Source: a virus
Length of the DNA: 64,000 nt
Strand: one strand, 5' to 3'
Virus record (IMG/VR): IMGVR_UViG_3300007345_000027
Coordinates: 33,090-97,089 of that record
The stretch's first letter is position 1. The number at the start of each line of letters is the position of its first letter. Positions 54,893-60,630 of the stretch are shown here, in pieces. The translations under genes were made by a program, and so were the position numbers. The notes beneath the pieces are model-generated. The model did not search any database and was not told the DNA's origin. It was given only the letters and a program-made list of their open reading frames with translations.

Positions 54893-54921
54893 TTGACAAG
54901 GTGCTCTACCGTTGCTAGAGT
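54893..54921 (+). promoter_or_regulatory. sigma70-type promoter
   Basis: TTGACA (54893-54898), 17 nt, TAGAGT (54916-54921) with extended TG. Confidence 0.65.
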
Positions 54922-54968
54922 GCCTTTGTTAAGGTTAAAGAGAAAGCTTTAGCTTTAATTAAATTCTT

Positions 54969-55005
54969 AAAGGGAGACCGTTTGGTTTCCCTTTTCTGCT
55001 ATGAT
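54969..55005 (+). promoter_or_regulatory. stem-loop fused to an extended -10 element (terminator/early promoter cassette)
   Basis: AAAGGGAGACC-GTTT-GGTTTCCCTTT followed immediately by TCTGCTATGAT. Confidence 0.6.
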
Positions 55006-55036: not shown

Positions 55037-57196
55037 ATGGCAACGAACATTTATTTTATTGGTCAAAAAGATAAACCTAACTGGTTTGGTGTTGGTGAGA
55101 CTAAAGGTCCTCTGATGATTGAGGAGTATGGTATTCCTCGTCGTGGTTCTGATTACAACAAGTCAAGAGATGCTTGTGTTGTCTATACTGAAATATCTTT
55201 TTGGAAAAACGTTTCAACTCGTAATGATATTGATGTAAAGCATGACAAAATAATTCATGATTGGTTGGAAACTATTCCTGGTATTACCAAAGTAGGCACA
55301 GAATCATTTATAATTAACGCATATGGTTTGGGTATTGGTCTGACCCATGAAAAGATTGCTTATATGATTGAGCAGGAGTTTTTCCCCAAAACACCTAAGA
55401 CCAAGAAAGATCTGACTCTCAAAAAGCATCAGCAAGAGTTTGTCAATAAAATCCTCTCTACTTGGGAAGAGTGGAAAGAGTTTCTGCTGTTTGCTAAGTG
55501 CCGTGCTGGTAAATCCATTATGGTTTTGTCGGCAATTGCACGCAAAGGTGTCAAGGTAAGTCTGATTGTTTCTCGTTATACTTCTCCTATTCAATCTTGG
55601 CGAGAAGATAGTAGGAACTTTTCGGAGTATAACGATCTTGTATTCATCAACCTTGCAGATAAAAACTATCTGGAAGAGATTGAATATTGGTACAATACTG
55701 ACAAACAACTTGTCCTGTGGACCACGGTTCAGGGTAACAATCGCTGGAACAAGATTCCATGTGATGTAGATCTGATCGTCTATGATGAGGCACACCAAGG
55801 TTACAATTCAACTCAATTTAAGAAACTCCGTAAGAAGTTTGATTGTCAGGTTCTGTATGTAACTGGCACTGCTTTTGATATAGTTTGGGACTTTTCAGAG
55901 TCCAATTCTTTCAAGTACTCTTACTTTGAAGAGCAACTGGATAAGAAACTGGGTTTGAACAATGCCCCTTCTATGAGAGTTATTCTTGCAAAGTACGATA
56001 CTGATGCATACAAGAAACTGTATGGAGATGATCCAGATGCAATGAAGAACCTCTTCTGTATGAATGAAGATGGGTCTGATTTCGTGCAACCTTCTTTGGT
56101 TCAAGATTTTTATGCAACTTATTTTGCAGATCAGAAACATTTGAAACCGAATGATCGTCTTCTTAATGGTAAGTTCCACATCTATATGGCACTTCCTTCA
56201 GTAGCAGCATGTCATGCTTCGGTCAAGTATTTGGAGAAGACTAAGTTTGCCCCTCTGGTTGTAACTGGAGATACGAAAGAAGATTCTGACACAATTAGAA
56301 AGCACGTTGTAGAAAACGAATACACCATTATTCTGACTGTTTCTGCTAATGTTCTTGGTGTTACTATTCCTGAAATTGATACTGTTATCAATGCTAGCGA
56401 AGGTGAATCCATCAACTTTTGGACTCAATTTGCTTTCCGTGGTGGATCGTCTGATCGTGATTGGGATGTAATCGATTTCTGCCCTCAGCGATGCCTTAAA
56501 ACCCTTCGTGAGATTTTTATTGCTGCGTGTGAAAACAATCCAATGATTGCAGAGTACATTATGCTCGATTTCATTCCTATCATTGAGTGGTCGAATGGTT
56601 TTGAGACTATGACTCAAGATCAGGTCGCTTCTATTCTTGCTTCCGATGTCACTAACACCATCTCTCTGATTTCTAACATCGTGAACAGCATGAATATGGA
56701 CAAACTTGCAAATTGCCAATTCAATTTGTCTCTCCTTTCTAAGGAAAAGAACAATGGTAGTAAGCGAGAGGTGAATGACAATGGTGCTAACGGTAAAGGA
56801 AATATCCAACGTGACGGTGAATCTTCCGAAAAGCAAGATAACTCAATTATTCTTACTAAAAAGGAAACCATTCGTGCAATCTTGGGGAGAGTTCCTCTTG
56901 CAATCTATCACTGCATTAAGAGTGGTGTTGTTCCAAACAGCATTCACAGTCTGATCAACTCAGATCACTACATTTACAATACTCTTGATACAGAAAAAAT
57001 CATTGAGCAACTGATTTTCGAAGAAGTTATTGATGCAAAGTCATTCTCTTTTCGAATTAATCAAGTAGTCATTGATATTCAACACTCTATCAATATTGAT
57101 GAGTGTAAGACACTTGAGAAACTGTCCTGCTCTCGTCAGAATCAGCAGTCGATGCCTGTAGAATTGGTAGAATCTCTGTTGGATATCTCCCTGTGA
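55037..57196 (+). CDS. SF2 (ResIII-like) helicase with degenerate GIY-YIG/T5orf172-like N-terminus; restriction-subunit-like
   Basis: Q motif LKKHQQ, Walker A variant AKCRAGKS, DEAH, VTGT, GVTIPE, QFAFRG; N-terminal IYFIG...GVGET...DKIIH..L...GTESF. Confidence 0.75.
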   Translation: MATNIYFIGQKDKPNWFGVGETKGPLMIEEYGIPRRGSDYNKSRDACVVYTEISFWKNVSTRNDIDVKHDKIIHDWLETIPGITKVGTESFIINAYGLGIGLTHEKIAYMIEQEFFPKTPKTKKDLTLKKHQQEFVNKILSTWEEWKEFLLFAKCRAGKSIMVLSAIARKGVKVSLIVSRYTSPIQSWREDSRNFSEYNDLVFINLADKNYLEEIEYWYNTDKQLVLWTTVQGNNRWNKIPCDVDLIVYDEAHQGYNSTQFKKLRKKFDCQVLYVTGTAFDIVWDFSESNSFKYSYFEEQLDKKLGLNNAPSMRVILAKYDTDAYKKLYGDDPDAMKNLFCMNEDGSDFVQPSLVQDFYATYFADQKHLKPNDRLLNGKFHIYMALPSVAACHASVKYLEKTKFAPLVVTGDTKEDSDTIRKHVVENEYTIILTVSANVLGVTIPEIDTVINASEGESINFWTQFAFRGGSSDRDWDVIDFCPQRCLKTLREIFIAACENNPMIAEYIMLDFIPIIEWSNGFETMTQDQVASILASDVTNTISLISNIVNSMNMDKLANCQFNLSLLSKEKNNGSKREVNDNGANGKGNIQRDGESSEKQDNSIILTKKETIRAILGRVPLAIYHCIKSGVVPNSIHSLINSDHYIYNTLDTEKIIEQLIFEEVIDAKSFSFRINQVVIDIQHSINIDECKTLEKLSCSRQNQQSMPVELVESLLDISL

Positions 57197-58152
57197 ATCC
57201 TCTTCTTATTGTAGGTGATCCTTCTGGTTTACACTCCCTTACTGCTATGAAGAGGGGGTGGAAACCAGAAAATATTTGGGTTTGGGAGAATGATCCAACA
57301 CATTTTTACACAATTAAACAACAACATGCTAAAATAAATCTAGTAGAGGATTTTGGGGAGTTAAAGTATATGAATAAGAGATTTATTTCCATTGGCAATC
57401 CCCCATTTTCAGACCGATCAAAAACAAATAGTTCGAAATCTCCCGATCTAGACTCTTTGTTTGTATTGGAATGTATGGAAATAAGTTGTTATATTAAAAT
57501 GATCATTAGATCAAAGCATTTTACAAATCCAAAATCTAACTTTAGAAAAAAATTATTTTCTAGTGGGCATGTAAAATCAATTATTAGAGTTGATGATAGT
57601 GCATTTCCAATTCAAAATACAGAAACTTGTATCTTAGAATGGGATGAAACCTATACTGGACCCACAAAAATTAAATATAAAAACGGTGAAATTTTTGAAA
57701 AATATCTTGATAAAGATACTGTTATCAAACTAGATAATCCAGATTTTGTTGCAGAGGTTGAAAACAATCTTGCACACAGGTGGGTTAGGGGAAAATTGAA
57801 TAGAAATAAAATTGTTCCTGGAAATTCTCCTATGGTAGAGGTTTGTGGTACAGGAGAAACACCAGTAATTCAAAATATTGAACCTGGATTGGAAGAAACC
57901 GCTAGAAATGTTCATGGTGTAGTGATCAACGTTGCTGCTGACTGGGGATCTTTAGGTAAAGTTATGATAAAACCATATGAAGCATCTATCAGTAGCAGTG
58001 TAATGTGCCTCAAAACAGATTCTGAGGAAGAATCTATTCAACTCCGCGATTACTTACTTTCTGATAAAATATCAGAAATTGTGAAATTGAATATGCCATC
58101 GTTTCACCCGACCAAAGACCTTTTTAAGAAAATTAAAGACCCTTTTAAATGA
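57193..58152 (+). CDS. amino-methyltransferase catalytic/specificity-domain protein, cassette 1
   Basis: Motif IV IGNPPF, downstream LDSLFV...FRKKLF...AFP...TCILEW, long C-terminal TRD-like region; GTG start overlaps the helicase stop. Confidence 0.7.
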   Translation: MNPLLIVGDPSGLHSLTAMKRGWKPENIWVWENDPTHFYTIKQQHAKINLVEDFGELKYMNKRFISIGNPPFSDRSKTNSSKSPDLDSLFVLECMEISCYIKMIIRSKHFTNPKSNFRKKLFSSGHVKSIIRVDDSAFPIQNTETCILEWDETYTGPTKIKYKNGEIFEKYLDKDTVIKLDNPDFVAEVENNLAHRWVRGKLNRNKIVPGNSPMVEVCGTGETPVIQNIEPGLEETARNVHGVVINVAADWGSLGKVMIKPYEASISSSVMCLKTDSEEESIQLRDYLLSDKISEIVKLNMPSFHPTKDLFKKIKDPFK

Positions 58153-58901
58153 ATCTTCTCCTTATTGTTGGTGATCCTTCTGGTTTGCACTCTCTTTCTG
58201 CATTGAAAGATGGATGGAAACCTGAAAATATTTGGGTTTGGGAAGACAATCCTGCACACATCTATGCAATTCGACAACAACATGCTAAAATAAATGTAAC
58301 GGAAGATCTAGATCATCTTATTCAACAAAAAATGCGTTTTACATTAGCAATCGGCAACCCTCCATATGGAGTTGGTGCAAATCTAGCAATTAAGTTTCTG
58401 AATAAAACTTCAGAACTTACTGATGATATTCGATTTGTGTTGCCAACTTCTGTTCGTAAACCATCTTCTCTGAATAAGATATCTTTTAATCTACATTGTG
58501 TTGTGGATCAAGATCTCGATGCTTCTACTTTTCCTGGTGGTATTAGTGCAGTAAAACAACACTGGGTTGTAAAGGAAGAAAAGCGTGAAAAGATTTTCAT
58601 GCACAAATCACACCCAGATTTTGAATTTCTTTCATATGAAAAGCGATTCGATGCTGATGTTTTCATTGGTGAATATGGATGTGGACCTAGTGGGCGAGTA
58701 AAAACTGAAAATTTCACTCACTATGCGAAAGGGCATCATTTTATTAAGGTTCATAATCAGAAGGTGATTGAAAACTTTCTAGAATTTGCTCCTAGATTTA
58801 GAGAAGTTGCAAATCAATGTAATGGAAGATATCATTTTGGTAAGAATGATCTTATTTCAACGTACATAGAGTGTTTAGAGGAAAAGAATGAGCAAAAATA
58901 A
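58149..58901 (+). CDS. amino-methyltransferase catalytic/specificity-domain protein, cassette 2
   Basis: Motif IV AIGNPPYG..ANLAIKFLNK...IRFVLP; N-terminal ~52 aa paralogous to cassette 1. Confidence 0.75.
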   Translation: MNLLLIVGDPSGLHSLSALKDGWKPENIWVWEDNPAHIYAIRQQHAKINVTEDLDHLIQQKMRFTLAIGNPPYGVGANLAIKFLNKTSELTDDIRFVLPTSVRKPSSLNKISFNLHCVVDQDLDASTFPGGISAVKQHWVVKEEKREKIFMHKSHPDFEFLSYEKRFDADVFIGEYGCGPSGRVKTENFTHYAKGHHFIKVHNQKVIENFLEFAPRFREVANQCNGRYHFGKNDLISTYIECLEEKNEQK

Positions 58902-59364
58902 ACATAATCAAGATGTTGGATCTACAATCGAAAGATCTGATGAACGTATTGCAGAAACTCAAGAGGTATTCACTCCAGCAGAACTATGCGAATCTATGGT
59001 TTCTGAGATTGAAGAAGAGTTATTGAAAGATCCTTCCTCTACTTTTCTTGATAACTCTGCTGGTTGTGGTAATTTTATTGTTGCTCTAATCAATAAACTC
59101 TCAGAATATCACGATCGCCATTATGTAATTGATAATATGGTTTATGCTGTTGAGTTGATGGAAGACAATCATAAAGAAATGTGTGAGAGAGTTGGTGTTC
59201 CTATTGACCATCCACATTATGTGTGCCATGATGCTCTCACCTATGATTATGGGTTTGGTGAACCAGTTGCATTGGAAGATCAATTAGGAATAATTCCTCA
59301 AGCAAAGGGAGAAAAACCAAAACCTCCTAGTAAAGATCCTAGTGAGGCACGACTGCCTTTGTAA
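58888..59364 (+). CDS. methyltransferase SAM-binding half (motifs X, I, II only)
   Basis: ERIAETQEVFTPAELCESMV, FLDNSAGCGNF, YAVELMEDN, CHDALTYDY; no NPPY/DPPY motif. Confidence 0.75.
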   Translation: MSKNKHNQDVGSTIERSDERIAETQEVFTPAELCESMVSEIEEELLKDPSSTFLDNSAGCGNFIVALINKLSEYHDRHYVIDNMVYAVELMEDNHKEMCERVGVPIDHPHYVCHDALTYDYGFGEPVALEDQLGIIPQAKGEKPKPPSKDPSEARLPL

Positions 59365-59375
59365 AACCAGTTTAT

Positions 59376-59420
59376 AGACCGTTCACTGGGTTTCCTGGTG
59401 GGCGGTTTTCTGCTATAATA
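59376..59420 (+). promoter_or_regulatory. stem-loop fused to an extended -10 element
   Basis: AGACCGTTCACTGGG-TTT-CCTGGTGGGCGGTTT (15 bp including G-U pairs) then TCTGCTATAATA. Confidence 0.65.
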
Positions 59421-59445: not shown

Positions 59446-60630
59446 TTGACCATCACACTTCGACCACACCAGCATGAAGCAGTTAATGCGATGTGGCAGA
59501 ACAACAAAGGTCAGGTGATCATTCCTACGGGTGGTGGCAAGACTATTTGCATGATCGATGATGCCATTACTAATATGGAAGTCAGGCATCATGGGCAAAC
59601 TTTTGTTGTTGTTGCTCCTCGGATTCTTCTTGCAGAACAACTCTGTAAAGAGTTTCTTGAGATGGTTTCACCCGCCCACAATGCCCATGTGATGCACGTT
59701 CACAGTGGTGATGTTGAGTTTTTCCACACCACCAAACCCGAGAAGATTCATCTTTTTGCAAACACTGCACGAACTGCTGGTGAGAATGTAATCATCTTCA
59801 CTACATATCACTCCCTTCATAAAGTTCAGGAGGCAGACATTGAAGTCAATACGATTTACTTTGATGAAGCGCATAATTCTGTGCAGAGAAACTTTTTCCC
59901 TGCTACGGAACACTTTGCTTCTGAGTCTGATCGGTGTTATTTCTTCACTGCTACTCCTAAGCATTCTGTTACTGTTTTCAAACCAGGGATGAATGATGTT
60001 GAGATTTATGGGCAGGTTATTTGCAATGTTCCTGCACCTAAATTGGTTGAAGAGGGTTACATTCTTCCTCCGAAAGTTGTGGTTCAAGAACTTCCTCAGG
60101 GTGATCTGAAGCAATCTGATGACAAGAATCTGCTGGATACTATTGATGCAAATTCTCTGAACAAGATTTTGATTGCTGCACGTTCTACCAAGCAAATTGT
60201 TCGCCTTATCCAAGAGACTACCTTCTGCTCCGAACTTGCTGGGCGTGGTTATTCTTGGATGGTGATTACTTCCAAGACTGGTGCAATCATTGACGGTAAG
60301 AAAGTTACTCGTGAAGAGTTTTTCAAAACTTTGAACACTTGGGGAAAAGATTCTGAGAAAAAGTTTGTTGTGATTCACCACTCTATCCTTTCTGAGGGTA
60401 TGAACGTCAAGGGATTGGAAGCGGTGCTGTTCATGCGGAACATGGACTACATCGGAATCTCCCAATCAATCGGGCGTGTGATCCGCCTAGGAGGCGCTGA
60501 GAAGGCGTTTGGATTGGTTTGTGTGCCTGTGTTTGATAAGGTTGGTATCAGCACTGCTAGGAGCGTTCAGGCGGTTGTGGATACCGTGTTCCAGCAGGGA
60601 GAGCCAGCGATTTCCGTTGTGCGGCGCTGA
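59446..60630 (+). CDS. SF2 DEAH helicase (ResIII-like)
   Basis: LRPHQ, IPTGGGKT, VVVAPRILLAEQL, TTYHSL, FDEAHN, FTATP, ILSEGMN, QSIGRVIR; TTG start. Confidence 0.9.
   Translation: MTITLRPHQHEAVNAMWQNNKGQVIIPTGGGKTICMIDDAITNMEVRHHGQTFVVVAPRILLAEQLCKEFLEMVSPAHNAHVMHVHSGDVEFFHTTKPEKIHLFANTARTAGENVIIFTTYHSLHKVQEADIEVNTIYFDEAHNSVQRNFFPATEHFASESDRCYFFTATPKHSVTVFKPGMNDVEIYGQVICNVPAPKLVEEGYILPPKVVVQELPQGDLKQSDDKNLLDTIDANSLNKILIAARSTKQIVRLIQETTFCSELAGRGYSWMVITSKTGAIIDGKKVTREEFFKTLNTWGKDSEKKFVVIHHSILSEGMNVKGLEAVLFMRNMDYIGISQSIGRVIRLGGAEKAFGLVCVPVFDKVGISTARSVQAVVDTVFQQGEPAISVVRR

Follow-up and report, generated by a model that had tools for sequence, protein, structure and literature searches.

A putative Type ISP-like DNA modification module encoded as separate subunits in a cyanophage-like virus, with a stand-alone candidate cofactor-binding half

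Gene layout and domain content of the locus

We analysed a 64,000-nucleotide (nt) stretch of viral DNA (hereafter the window), which comes from a 97-kb IMG/VR virus record (IMGVR_UViG_3300007345_000027; 46% complete), and focused on four plus-strand open reading frames (ORF1 to ORF4) that overlap head to tail. The relatives of the window are T4-like cyanomyoviruses (S-CAM7, P-SSM2/5, ACG-2014f and MW02 phages), and the public runs containing the stretch mostly carry freshwater metagenome labels. Our favoured interpretation is that the locus would encode a Type ISP-like machine for modification, and possibly for restriction-modification, which is carried by a phage and composed of separate, translationally coupled subunits. 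A sequence-only reading of the same DNA had described the four overlapping genes and quoted their motif strings, and the ORF listing bears out both. The predicted proteins are separate chains with stop codons between them: ORF1 and ORF2 meet at GTGA (the ORF2 start codon being GTG), ORF2 and ORF3 overlap at ATGA, and ORF3 and ORF4 share 14 nt. A programmed frameshift from ORF1 into ORF2 was considered and rejected. There is no slippery heptamer at GTGA, and the same split recurs in S-CAM7 with an overlap of 8 nt and in ACG-2014f with one of 4 nt, so we read the junction as translational coupling. All four proteins fall in conserved phage families of the PHROGs database, and a 3737-nt contig from an independent freshwater metagenome run spans positions 55677-59413 with 14 differences. 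The four-gene motif arrangement is not a chance pattern. Contigs from metatranscriptome (RNA-library) data cover parts of ORF1 to ORF3 and hardly any of ORF4, and these contigs say nothing on expression or its absence.

ORF1 (55037..57196; 719 amino acids, aa; phrog_22930, 3.9e-215) combines a T5orf172/GIY-YIG-like N-terminal domain, a superfamily 2 (SF2) helicase-like ATPase and a C-terminal helix resembling methyltransferase motif X. The ATPase was identified by a Pfam ResIII match (5.8e-8, residues 126-279, 33.2 bits against a cut-off of 22.5), a weak Helicase_C match (residues 386-454) and the presence of GKS and DEAH motifs. The N-terminal domain (55037..55366, residues ~1-110) was more elusive: the window copy had no Pfam match (PF10544, PF13455, PF01541) at E≤5, and no Mrr match was found for it. 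Among 11 homologs of ORF1, one matched T5orf172 (7.7e-7) and MUG113 (7.5e-5) and two matched GIY-YIG weakly (0.037), while the look-alikes of the domain in the ESM Atlas were T5orf172/MUG113 clusters (score 0.91, 157/256 features shared). Residues G20, T22, D39, D70, H74 and E89 are invariant and Y6 is nearly so; where the GIY-YIG signature has its second tyrosine, there is a phenylalanine. The suggestion that this domain is GIY-YIG-like thus stands through one homolog's Pfam matches and the ESM Atlas, though not through a match of the window copy itself; by such transitive evidence the domain appears to belong to the GIY-YIG clan, with a putative nuclease role.

At the very end of ORF1 lies the motif X-like segment (57143..57184, residues 703-716). 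The pattern Q.Q..hP..Lh..hh is kept in the last 15-20 residues across the 11 homologs, and in two single-chain relatives described below (from Synechococcus phage MC09 and IMG/VR locus L074) strand 1 of the methylase head follows it at a distance of 15-22 residues. Because the segment is conserved and placed where motif X sits in gamma-class methyltransferases, the proposal that the helicase tail is a motif X is supported. PADLOC returned no match for ORF1 or ORF2, and an NCBIfam search yielded nothing useful.

ORF2 (57193..58152; 319 aa) and ORF3 (58149..58901; 250 aa) both begin with the string LLIVGDPSG...IWVWE and are 66% identical over their first 74 residues, beyond which BLAST detected no similarity, in agreement with the earlier description of their C-terminal regions as unrelated. 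The shared N-terminal 61-63 residues (the head), which are predicted to supply strands 1-3 of a methyltransferase fold, are encoded by a diverged direct repeat that is also visible in the DNA alignment (copy 1 at 57193..57390, copy 2 at 58149-58346, plus strand). In ORF2, NPPF (residues 69-72), a catalytic half and a C-terminal recognition region particular to this protein come after the head; in ORF3 (phrog_5172, 1.4e-68; PADLOC MTase_II, 5e-10) the head is followed by NPPY (residues 70-73), a catalytic half of the P-SSM2_036 type and a recognition region. Motif IV (NPPF or NPPY) is invariant among the homologs of both, and in a structural model of ORF3 strand 66-69 precedes NPPY. Pfam Eco57I was matched by ORF2 (2.5e-5, 24.9 bits) and ORF3 (3.1e-3, 18.1 bits), in both cases below the cut-off of 25.3, and a profile search of Protein Data Bank (PDB) sequences matched the two proteins to M.TaqI from motif IV onward only. 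We treated a match of ORF2 to SBP_bac_6 as noise. The glycine loop of both heads (G-D-P-S-G) is 2-3 residues shorter than the canonical form, and canonical motif I is absent from the chain that carries motif IV.

ORF4 (58888..59364; 158 aa; phrog_4376, 1.2e-69) appears to be a stand-alone S-adenosylmethionine (SAM)-binding half of a methyltransferase (henceforth SAM-half). It carries motif X (EVFTP, residues 26-30), motif I (FLDNSAGCGNF, 53-63) and motif II (AVEL, 87-90) and has no motif IV, exactly as previously described, and we additionally noted a motif III-like HDAL (114-117). The motif I form F-x-D-x-x-x-G-x-G-N-F occurs on ORF4 only, with G59 and G61 invariant in its homologs. ORF4 scored 11.2 bits against Pfam N6_Mtase (cut-off 20.4), its profile matched the methyltransferase CamA at motifs X and I, and it weakly matched the motif X/I region of the PADLOC model PDLC03626 (E 0.017); a match to Acb1 (E 0.013) was treated as noise. 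An exhaustive search found 624 representatives at E≤1e-3, most of the best being 110-200 aa long. ORF4 ends in a Pro/Lys-rich tail (~25 residues, ~135-158; 59290-59364) that is missing from most homologs (133 aa), while a minority of IMG/VR homologs (e.g., L025-L031 and L060) align through residue 158 and so apparently have a comparable tail.

To assess whether these genes are maintained, we calculated the ratio of nonsynonymous to synonymous substitution rates (dN/dS) by the Nei-Gojobori method against several relatives. The values were 0.14-0.17 for ORF1, 0.13-0.49 for ORF2 (with dS saturated in distant pairs), 0.07-0.15 for ORF3 and 0.11-0.22 for ORF4, and all genes of the module are therefore under purifying selection. 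Within ORF3 the head was less constrained (0.18-0.40) than the C-terminal part (0.04-0.11). These values reject pseudogene decay, and they bear directly on the idea that the four ORFs are the wreckage of a once-fused gene, broken by frameshifts and truncation and yielding no functional enzyme. That idea could draw on the existence of fused homologs, on gene boundaries that cut what canonical enzymes have as one fold, and on most of ORF4 being uncovered by RNA-library contigs (which is not evidence of absence). Against it stand the selection on every gene, the identical split points across genera with differing overlap lengths, the 260 IMG/VR and 272 prokaryotic relatives of the small gene and the same arrangement in an independent sample, and we consider it extremely improbable.

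Fused, permuted and neighbouring relatives

Several relatives carry the segments of the locus on a single chain. In Synechococcus phage MC09, the first 723 residues of a 1074-aa 'Eco57I' protein align with ORF1 at 43% identity, and the chain continues into a segment 47% identical to ORF2 residues 1-74, NPPY included. IMG/VR locus L074 encodes a similar 1015-aa helicase-methylase fusion, followed by a SAM-half gene. Since these homologs of ORF1 are fused to a methyltransferase, ORF1 and ORF2 together appear to be a split Type ISP-like enzyme. A third form is P0104 (1337 aa), in which ResIII is followed by an ORF4-like X-I-II-III segment and then by NPPY; P0036 and P0044 likewise have this normal motif order in one chain. 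Taken together, MC09, L074, P0104 and a bacterial 1463-aa protein (see below) support the earlier view of a nuclease-like, helicase, methyltransferase and target-recognition polypeptide that was broken up. A word-indexed search for longer fused relatives of ORF4 had found none; they were found later by tblastn of phage records and by the exhaustive representative search.

Other single chains have the order permuted. Aeromonas phage Aeh1 p090 (415 aa) has its NPPY close to the N-terminus (residues 8-11), and its motifs X and I follow at ~286-340. In P0055, Eco57I profile positions 75-156 correspond to residues 2-64 and N6_Mtase positions 20-118 to residues 271-373, and P0079 and P0113 are permuted in the same way. 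MC09, P0055, P0036 and P0104 all pass the curated Pfam cut-offs for Eco57I/N6_Mtase. These chains place the boundary of ORF4 in context: its C-terminus is the point where strand 4 would begin, where P0036 and P0044 continue into the strand before NPPF/NPPY, and where the cyanophage protein P-SSM2_036 begins (M-K-F-T-L-A-I-G-N-P-P-Y). P-SSM2_036 is highly similar to ORF3 from residue 62 and is followed by an ORF4 homolog, P-SSM2_037. By its motif order, the C-terminal part of ORF3 together with ORF4 appears to be a widespread, separate permuted methyltransferase encoded by two genes, which the sequence-only reading had missed.

We then surveyed the neighbourhoods of the 260 ORF4 relatives in IMG/VR, examining the best 80 loci, of which 73 were informative (i.e., had at least 650 nt of upstream DNA). 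A methylase-module gene lay directly upstream of the ORF4 homolog in 72 of the 73 informative loci, and in 68 of these 72 the two genes overlapped or were at most 10 nt apart. The partner was a head-less protein of 186-202 aa with NPPY at residue 9-17 (24 loci), a protein with head plus NPPY (13 loci), an S-SKS1-like protein with an extra N-domain and a glycine-free head (25 loci), a helicase and methylase followed by a ~190-aa gene without Pfam match (5 loci), a helicase-methylase fusion (1 locus), a protein of more than 900 aa (1 locus) or a methylase-like protein in which motif IV was not found (3 loci). Co-occurrence in relatives, on which the earlier reading depended, is thus borne out, as is its description of ORF4 as a separate SAM-binding half, since such genes are almost always encoded beside NPPY proteins. 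In the complete relatives checked the ratio of NPPx to SAM-half genes was 1:1; for example, one complete 236-kb genome (G001) has one head-bearing NPPY gene, one SAM-half and no further partner. A tree of SAM-halves clustered by partner type, with ORF4 in a clade (support 98) of seven members that all have ORF3-type partners; we did not count this as evidence of co-evolution, as related sequences share labels. S-CAM7 (L001, L014) has two SAM-half genes, gp057 after the helicase-linked gp056 and gp077 after the head-less gp076, and the tree places gp057 with the MC09 copy, which also has a helicase-linked partner.

Pairing with a small SAM-half extends beyond cyanophages. In the Klebsiella T4-like phage PKO111, gp114 combines a LEM-3 GIY-YIG domain (Pfam, 2.7e-15) with a glycine-free head, NPPF and a recognition region; the next gene, gp115, encodes a 153-aa SAM-half. 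Prokaryotic genomes contained 272 ORF4 relatives, including a 143-aa SAM-half after a 281-aa NPPY-first gene in Chlorobiales (L115), a 146-aa SAM-half after a 1461-aa protein in Peribacteria (L110) and a 238-aa SAM-half protein after a 1463-aa ResIII+Eco57I protein (PADLOC REase_MTase_IIG, 4e-52) in Lactobacillaceae (L130). An Akkermansia locus (L122) encodes a SAM-half, an Eco57I methylase (motif I D-P-C-C-K-S-G, strand 2 acid lost) and a MUG113/T5orf172-ResIII helicase. In the heads of the partners, motif I is shortened or glycine-free. We also observed that in three large bacterial methylases (L122:6641-8176, L116:4479-5987 and L130:1598-5989) a lysine replaces the first glycine of motif I (C-K-S-G, C-K-D-G and A-K-T-G, respectively), the strand 2 acid is missing and a canonical SAM-half gene adjoins; the lysine might fill an empty cofactor pocket.

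Closer relatives of the window differ in how the heads are distributed. The closest (L019; ORF4 89% identical) has the order ORF1, ORF2-type gene, ORF3 homolog without head (94% identical), ORF4, ORF5; in L022, ORF1 is directly followed by a head-bearing ORF3-type gene; and in L087 and L062 the ORF2 homolog stands directly after the helicase, with the SAM-half gene next. The arrangements in L019 and L022 indicate that heads are gained, lost and exchanged between cassettes. Two RNA-library contigs have joints at the head repeats: in one, the 3' end of ORF2 (to 58160) is joined to sequence identical to the ORF2 head (57205-57359), and in another, position 57294 is joined to 58257, skipping the ORF2 body. 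With low depth and short sides, these joints are a weak hint of recombination variants in the population. A further variation was seen in the ACG-2014f isolate Syn7803C16 (L005:4699-5712), whose helicase-linked methylase has a tandem-duplicated recognition region with two THPDFEF...TTY modules and may have a bipartite or doubled target.

Downstream of the four genes, 81 nt after ORF4, lies ORF5 (59446..60630, plus strand), a 394-aa DEAD/ResIII helicase (Pfam ResIII 7.6e-19, DEAD 9e-16; dN/dS 0.14-0.20) that matched the PADLOC Type IIG model PDLC03597 (4.7e-13) and PbeA. A helicase of this type occurs 3' of the SAM-half gene in most IMG/VR cyanophage loci (L019-L098) at a distance of 0-3 kb, and may be a member of the module or a mere marker of a conserved insertion hot spot. 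Upstream, the region's best sigma-70-like promoter match (54893..54921, plus strand; TTGACA-17-TAGAGT with TG) lies 116 nt 5' of ORF1; as promoter-like sites were not enriched (22 observed against 17.4 expected), it is a consensus match only. Between this site and the ORF1 start is a GC-containing hairpin (54968-54996; arms AAGGGAGACC and GGTTTCCCTT, GTTT loop), which could be the terminator of the upstream gene for a 1697-aa fibre protein or a leader structure. In the parallel cyanophage layout, a ~190-aa protein stands between methylase and SAM-half, with a ~470-aa helicase upstream (e.g., Bellamy gp87, L013:1936-2499; ACG-2014f gp052, L012:2985-3587; and L075, L078, L080, L086 and L098). 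By eye this protein has a D...(Q/E)xK-like pattern, and it may be a candidate PD-(D/E)xK nuclease.

Cofactor supply in trans and the role of the module

We propose the following division of labour. ORF1 would supply the T5orf172/GIY-YIG-like nuclease-type domain, the SF2 translocase and, with its terminal helix, motif X of the methyltransferase. ORF2 and ORF3 would be alternative catalytic and DNA-recognition subunits that share the recombining head, i.e., the segment into which the helicase chain runs on in fused relatives. ORF4 would be the cofactor subunit, namely the SAM-binding half (motifs X and I-III) of a gamma-class N6-adenine methyltransferase, docking beside strand 4 (NPPY) of the catalytic subunit and thereby completing the Rossmann sheet in trans. 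The C-terminal part of ORF3 with ORF4 would then correspond to the two-gene, order-permuted methyltransferase of T4-like phages (P-SSM2 036/037 type), grafted behind a helicase-linked head. What we observed are the gene order and motifs, the fused and permuted relatives, the adjacency of the genes, the purifying selection and the predicted ORF3 fold. We infer that ORF4 physically complements the catalytic subunits, that both ORF2 and ORF3 use it, that adenine is methylated and that there may be nuclease activity.

The reasoning for supply in trans is as follows. Head-less partners would otherwise have no SAM pocket, and the small protein must therefore supply strands 1-3 and the cofactor site; the fused relatives, both permuted and in normal order, support this as 'Rosetta stone' evidence. 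Experimentally, detached fragments of C5 methylases form active enzyme even when they overlap extensively, and M.AquI consists of two chains in nature (PMC5944983). Given that overlapping C5 fragments complement each other, a subunit with a redundant head could still accept a half in trans. We thus consider it very likely that the ORF4 family in general belongs to a two-subunit enzyme, and probable, from the motifs and gene neighbourhoods, that ORF4 is the trans-acting SAM-binding subunit of the module in the window. That it serves both ORF2 and ORF3 here, where the contig has two NPPx genes and one ORF4, is plausible but a more tentative suggestion.

Several observations weigh against this interpretation. 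An AlphaFold2 model of ORF3 (26-sequence alignment; mean predicted local distance difference test score, pLDDT, 92.6; predicted template modelling score, pTM, 0.82; head pLDDT 94-98) predicts ORF3 alone to be a complete seven-strand class I methyltransferase fold with the head as strands 1-3 (strand 4-7, helix 13-20, strand 28-31, helix 35-44, strand 49-51). Model residues 1-143 aligned with PH1948, KsgA and METTL5 (Z-scores 13.0-13.5, root-mean-square deviation, rmsd, 2.5-2.7 Å, 136-140 residues), and residues 1-250 with CamA 55-576, recognition domain included (Z 12.2-12.5, ~243 residues, rmsd 4.2 Å). In 13 head-bearing homologs D9, P10, G12, W31 and E32 are invariant, i.e., the D-P-x-G loop and the strand 2 glutamate. 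The head is accordingly modelled as a real strands 1-3 half with a ribose-binding glutamate and a shortened glycine loop, and ORF3 as structurally complete apart from motif X. While the motif I/II strings quoted for the heads are present, calling them degenerate was an overstatement, and the claim that no single ORF looks like a complete methyltransferase is not supported: the ORF3 model aligns from residue 1, and ORF2 and ORF3 are not clearly incomplete. ORF2 and ORF3 may therefore bind SAM themselves without ORF4. Furthermore, hhalign detected no relation between the head and SAM-half profiles (probability 0.7%), so their paralogy would follow from position only; the P0055 model is of moderate confidence (pLDDT 62.6) and its beta-class matches are weak (E ~0.01-0.03), and we did not use these structural matches as proof, the recognition region being of low confidence. 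Shared descent by itself could account for gene adjacency and for the grouping of SAM-halves by partner type, and in a contig that is 46% complete a second ORF4-like gene may lie elsewhere in the genome.

These points lead to an alternative in which ORF2 and ORF3 would be gamma-class methyltransferases sufficient in themselves, binding SAM with their own heads, while the ORF1 tail would serve as motif X for whichever of them docks on the helicase. ORF4 would not be needed, being either a leftover partner from a head-less ORF3 ancestor or an accessory or regulatory SAM-binding protein. The complete Rossmann fold of the ORF3 model, the invariant D9, P10, G12 and E32 and the purifying selection on the head all speak for it, and the head-less state of the closely related L019 homolog shows how ORF4 could be a legacy. 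By contrast, in the complete genome G001 an intact SAM-half stands beside a head-bearing partner without any head-less partner, and SAM-halves are retained beside full helicase-methylase fusions (MC09, L074 and the bacterial L130). The glycine loop of the head is also 2-3 residues under canonical length, selection is weaker on the head than on the C-terminal part, and the glycines and the acidic residue of strand 2 are gone from the heads of related architectures. On balance we regard self-sufficiency of ORF2 and ORF3 as unlikely, and retain ORF4 as the probable cofactor subunit.

As for the biological role, the module could provide protective methylation of phage DNA or act as a restriction-like weapon driven by ORF1. 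Its likely role would be to methylate phage DNA at two sequence motifs; the motor and nuclease-like subunit might in addition target host or rival DNA that is unmethylated. A purely protective (anti-restriction) module, with ORF1 as a DNA-tracking processivity motor lacking a nuclease function or restriction arm, would fit the missing Pfam match of the N-terminal domain and its phenylalanine in place of the second GIY-YIG tyrosine, the lack of a PADLOC defence-system match for ORF1 and ORF2, and the fact that orphan methylases are common in phages; T5orf172 proteins have also been proposed to function in recombination rather than restriction (PMC7824862). On the other hand, the candidate catalytic positions Y6, H74 and E89 are conserved, bacterial relatives match the PADLOC Type IIG model PDLC03626 at 4e-52, and the parallel cyanophage layout holds the ~190-aa protein with its PD-(D/E)xK-like pattern, recognised by eye only. 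We find protection alone somewhat doubtful. For the role of a restriction-modification decoy, which had also been suggested, we found no evidence.

A broader interpretation, which we offer as speculative, is that the family represents a series of circular-permutation steps, with one SAM subunit shared by two swappable subunits on a helicase/nuclease-like motor. The forms, coexisting under selection, would be a normal-order chain, a redundant or decaying first half with a separate copy, a head-less gene with a SAM-half, and a re-fused permuted chain; subunits docking via the recombining 63-residue head would make a combinatorial, cassette-switching viral machine resembling a restriction-modification system.

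If ORF4 does complete the fold in trans, this would be, as far as we have found, the first amino-methyltransferase known to be naturally divided between motifs III and IV. Fold complementation and circular permutation could then be studied in a system that nature provides ready-made. Phages would further be seen to diversify methylation specificity cheaply, by combining one cofactor module with several recognition modules. With the small proteins labelled 'hypothetical' and the head-less partners resembling truncated methylases, the methylation capacity of phages is undercounted. Finally, loci of Akkermansia, Bacteroidales and Lactobacillaceae share the link to a T5orf172-helicase, which suggests that a multi-subunit relative of the Type ISP/IIG systems is widespread and has so far gone undescribed.

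Comparison with known systems

In Type ISP enzymes, a nuclease, an SF2 helicase-like ATPase, a gamma-class adenine methyltransferase and a recognition domain follow one another (PMC4666363, PMC2790903). The locus has the same domain order, which fused cyanophage and bacterial homologs reproduce as one chain, and in the MC09 and L074 fusions motif X (ORF1 tail), head, NPPF and C-terminal region follow one another without a break. However, Type ISP enzymes are single polypeptides with an Mrr-family PD-(D/E)xK nuclease, whereas the window version comprises three or four polypeptides and its N-terminal domain is T5orf172/GIY-YIG-like; it further differs in being phage-encoded and in having an extra stand-alone SAM-binding protein and two alternative methylase/recognition subunits. 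Because it is not a single chain and has no Mrr nuclease, the module should not be filed as a Type ISP member. The PADLOC model PDLC03626 (REase_MTase_IIG), which describes bacterial helicase-Eco57I fusions, is matched by L130 (4e-52) and piecewise by L122 and L116; the small SAM-half protein is not included in it, and ORF1 and ORF2 do not match it.

Two polypeptides forming one methyltransferase fold are known from M.AquI alpha/beta and from fragments of M.SssI and M.MpeI, to which we liken the putative pair here from gene adjacency and fused relatives. All of these are C5-cytosine enzymes; M.AquI is cut between motif VIII and the recognition domain, and the M.SssI and M.MpeI fragments are artificial. 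The locus, by contrast, would encode an amino-methyltransferase in which the cut falls between motifs III and IV and the two genes stand in reverse order. Our search of full-text literature found no described split N6-adenine methyltransferase of this kind, which is weak negative evidence.

Permuted methylases of the M.EcoKI-like type are known in large and jumbo phages (PMC7824862). Compared with permuted amino-methyltransferases of the beta class (M1.HpyAVI, M.BceJIV), the C-terminal part of ORF3 and ORF4 show a like order (IV-VIII, recognition, X, I-III), but the putative enzyme here is spread over two genes and its sequences belong to the Eco57I/N6_Mtase lineage rather than PF01555. The copy of strands 1-3 retained in ORF3 looks like an intermediate of permutation by duplication. 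With the gamma-class N6-adenine methyltransferases (M.TaqI, CamA; PF07669, PF02384) the window shares the NPPY/NPPF catalytic motif; it differs in having motif X on the helicase, a shortened glycine loop in the in-chain head and the canonical motifs I-III on a small protein of their own, whose gene follows the catalytic one. The module appears to belong to the Eco57I/N6_Mtase lineage, with its motifs spread over three proteins.

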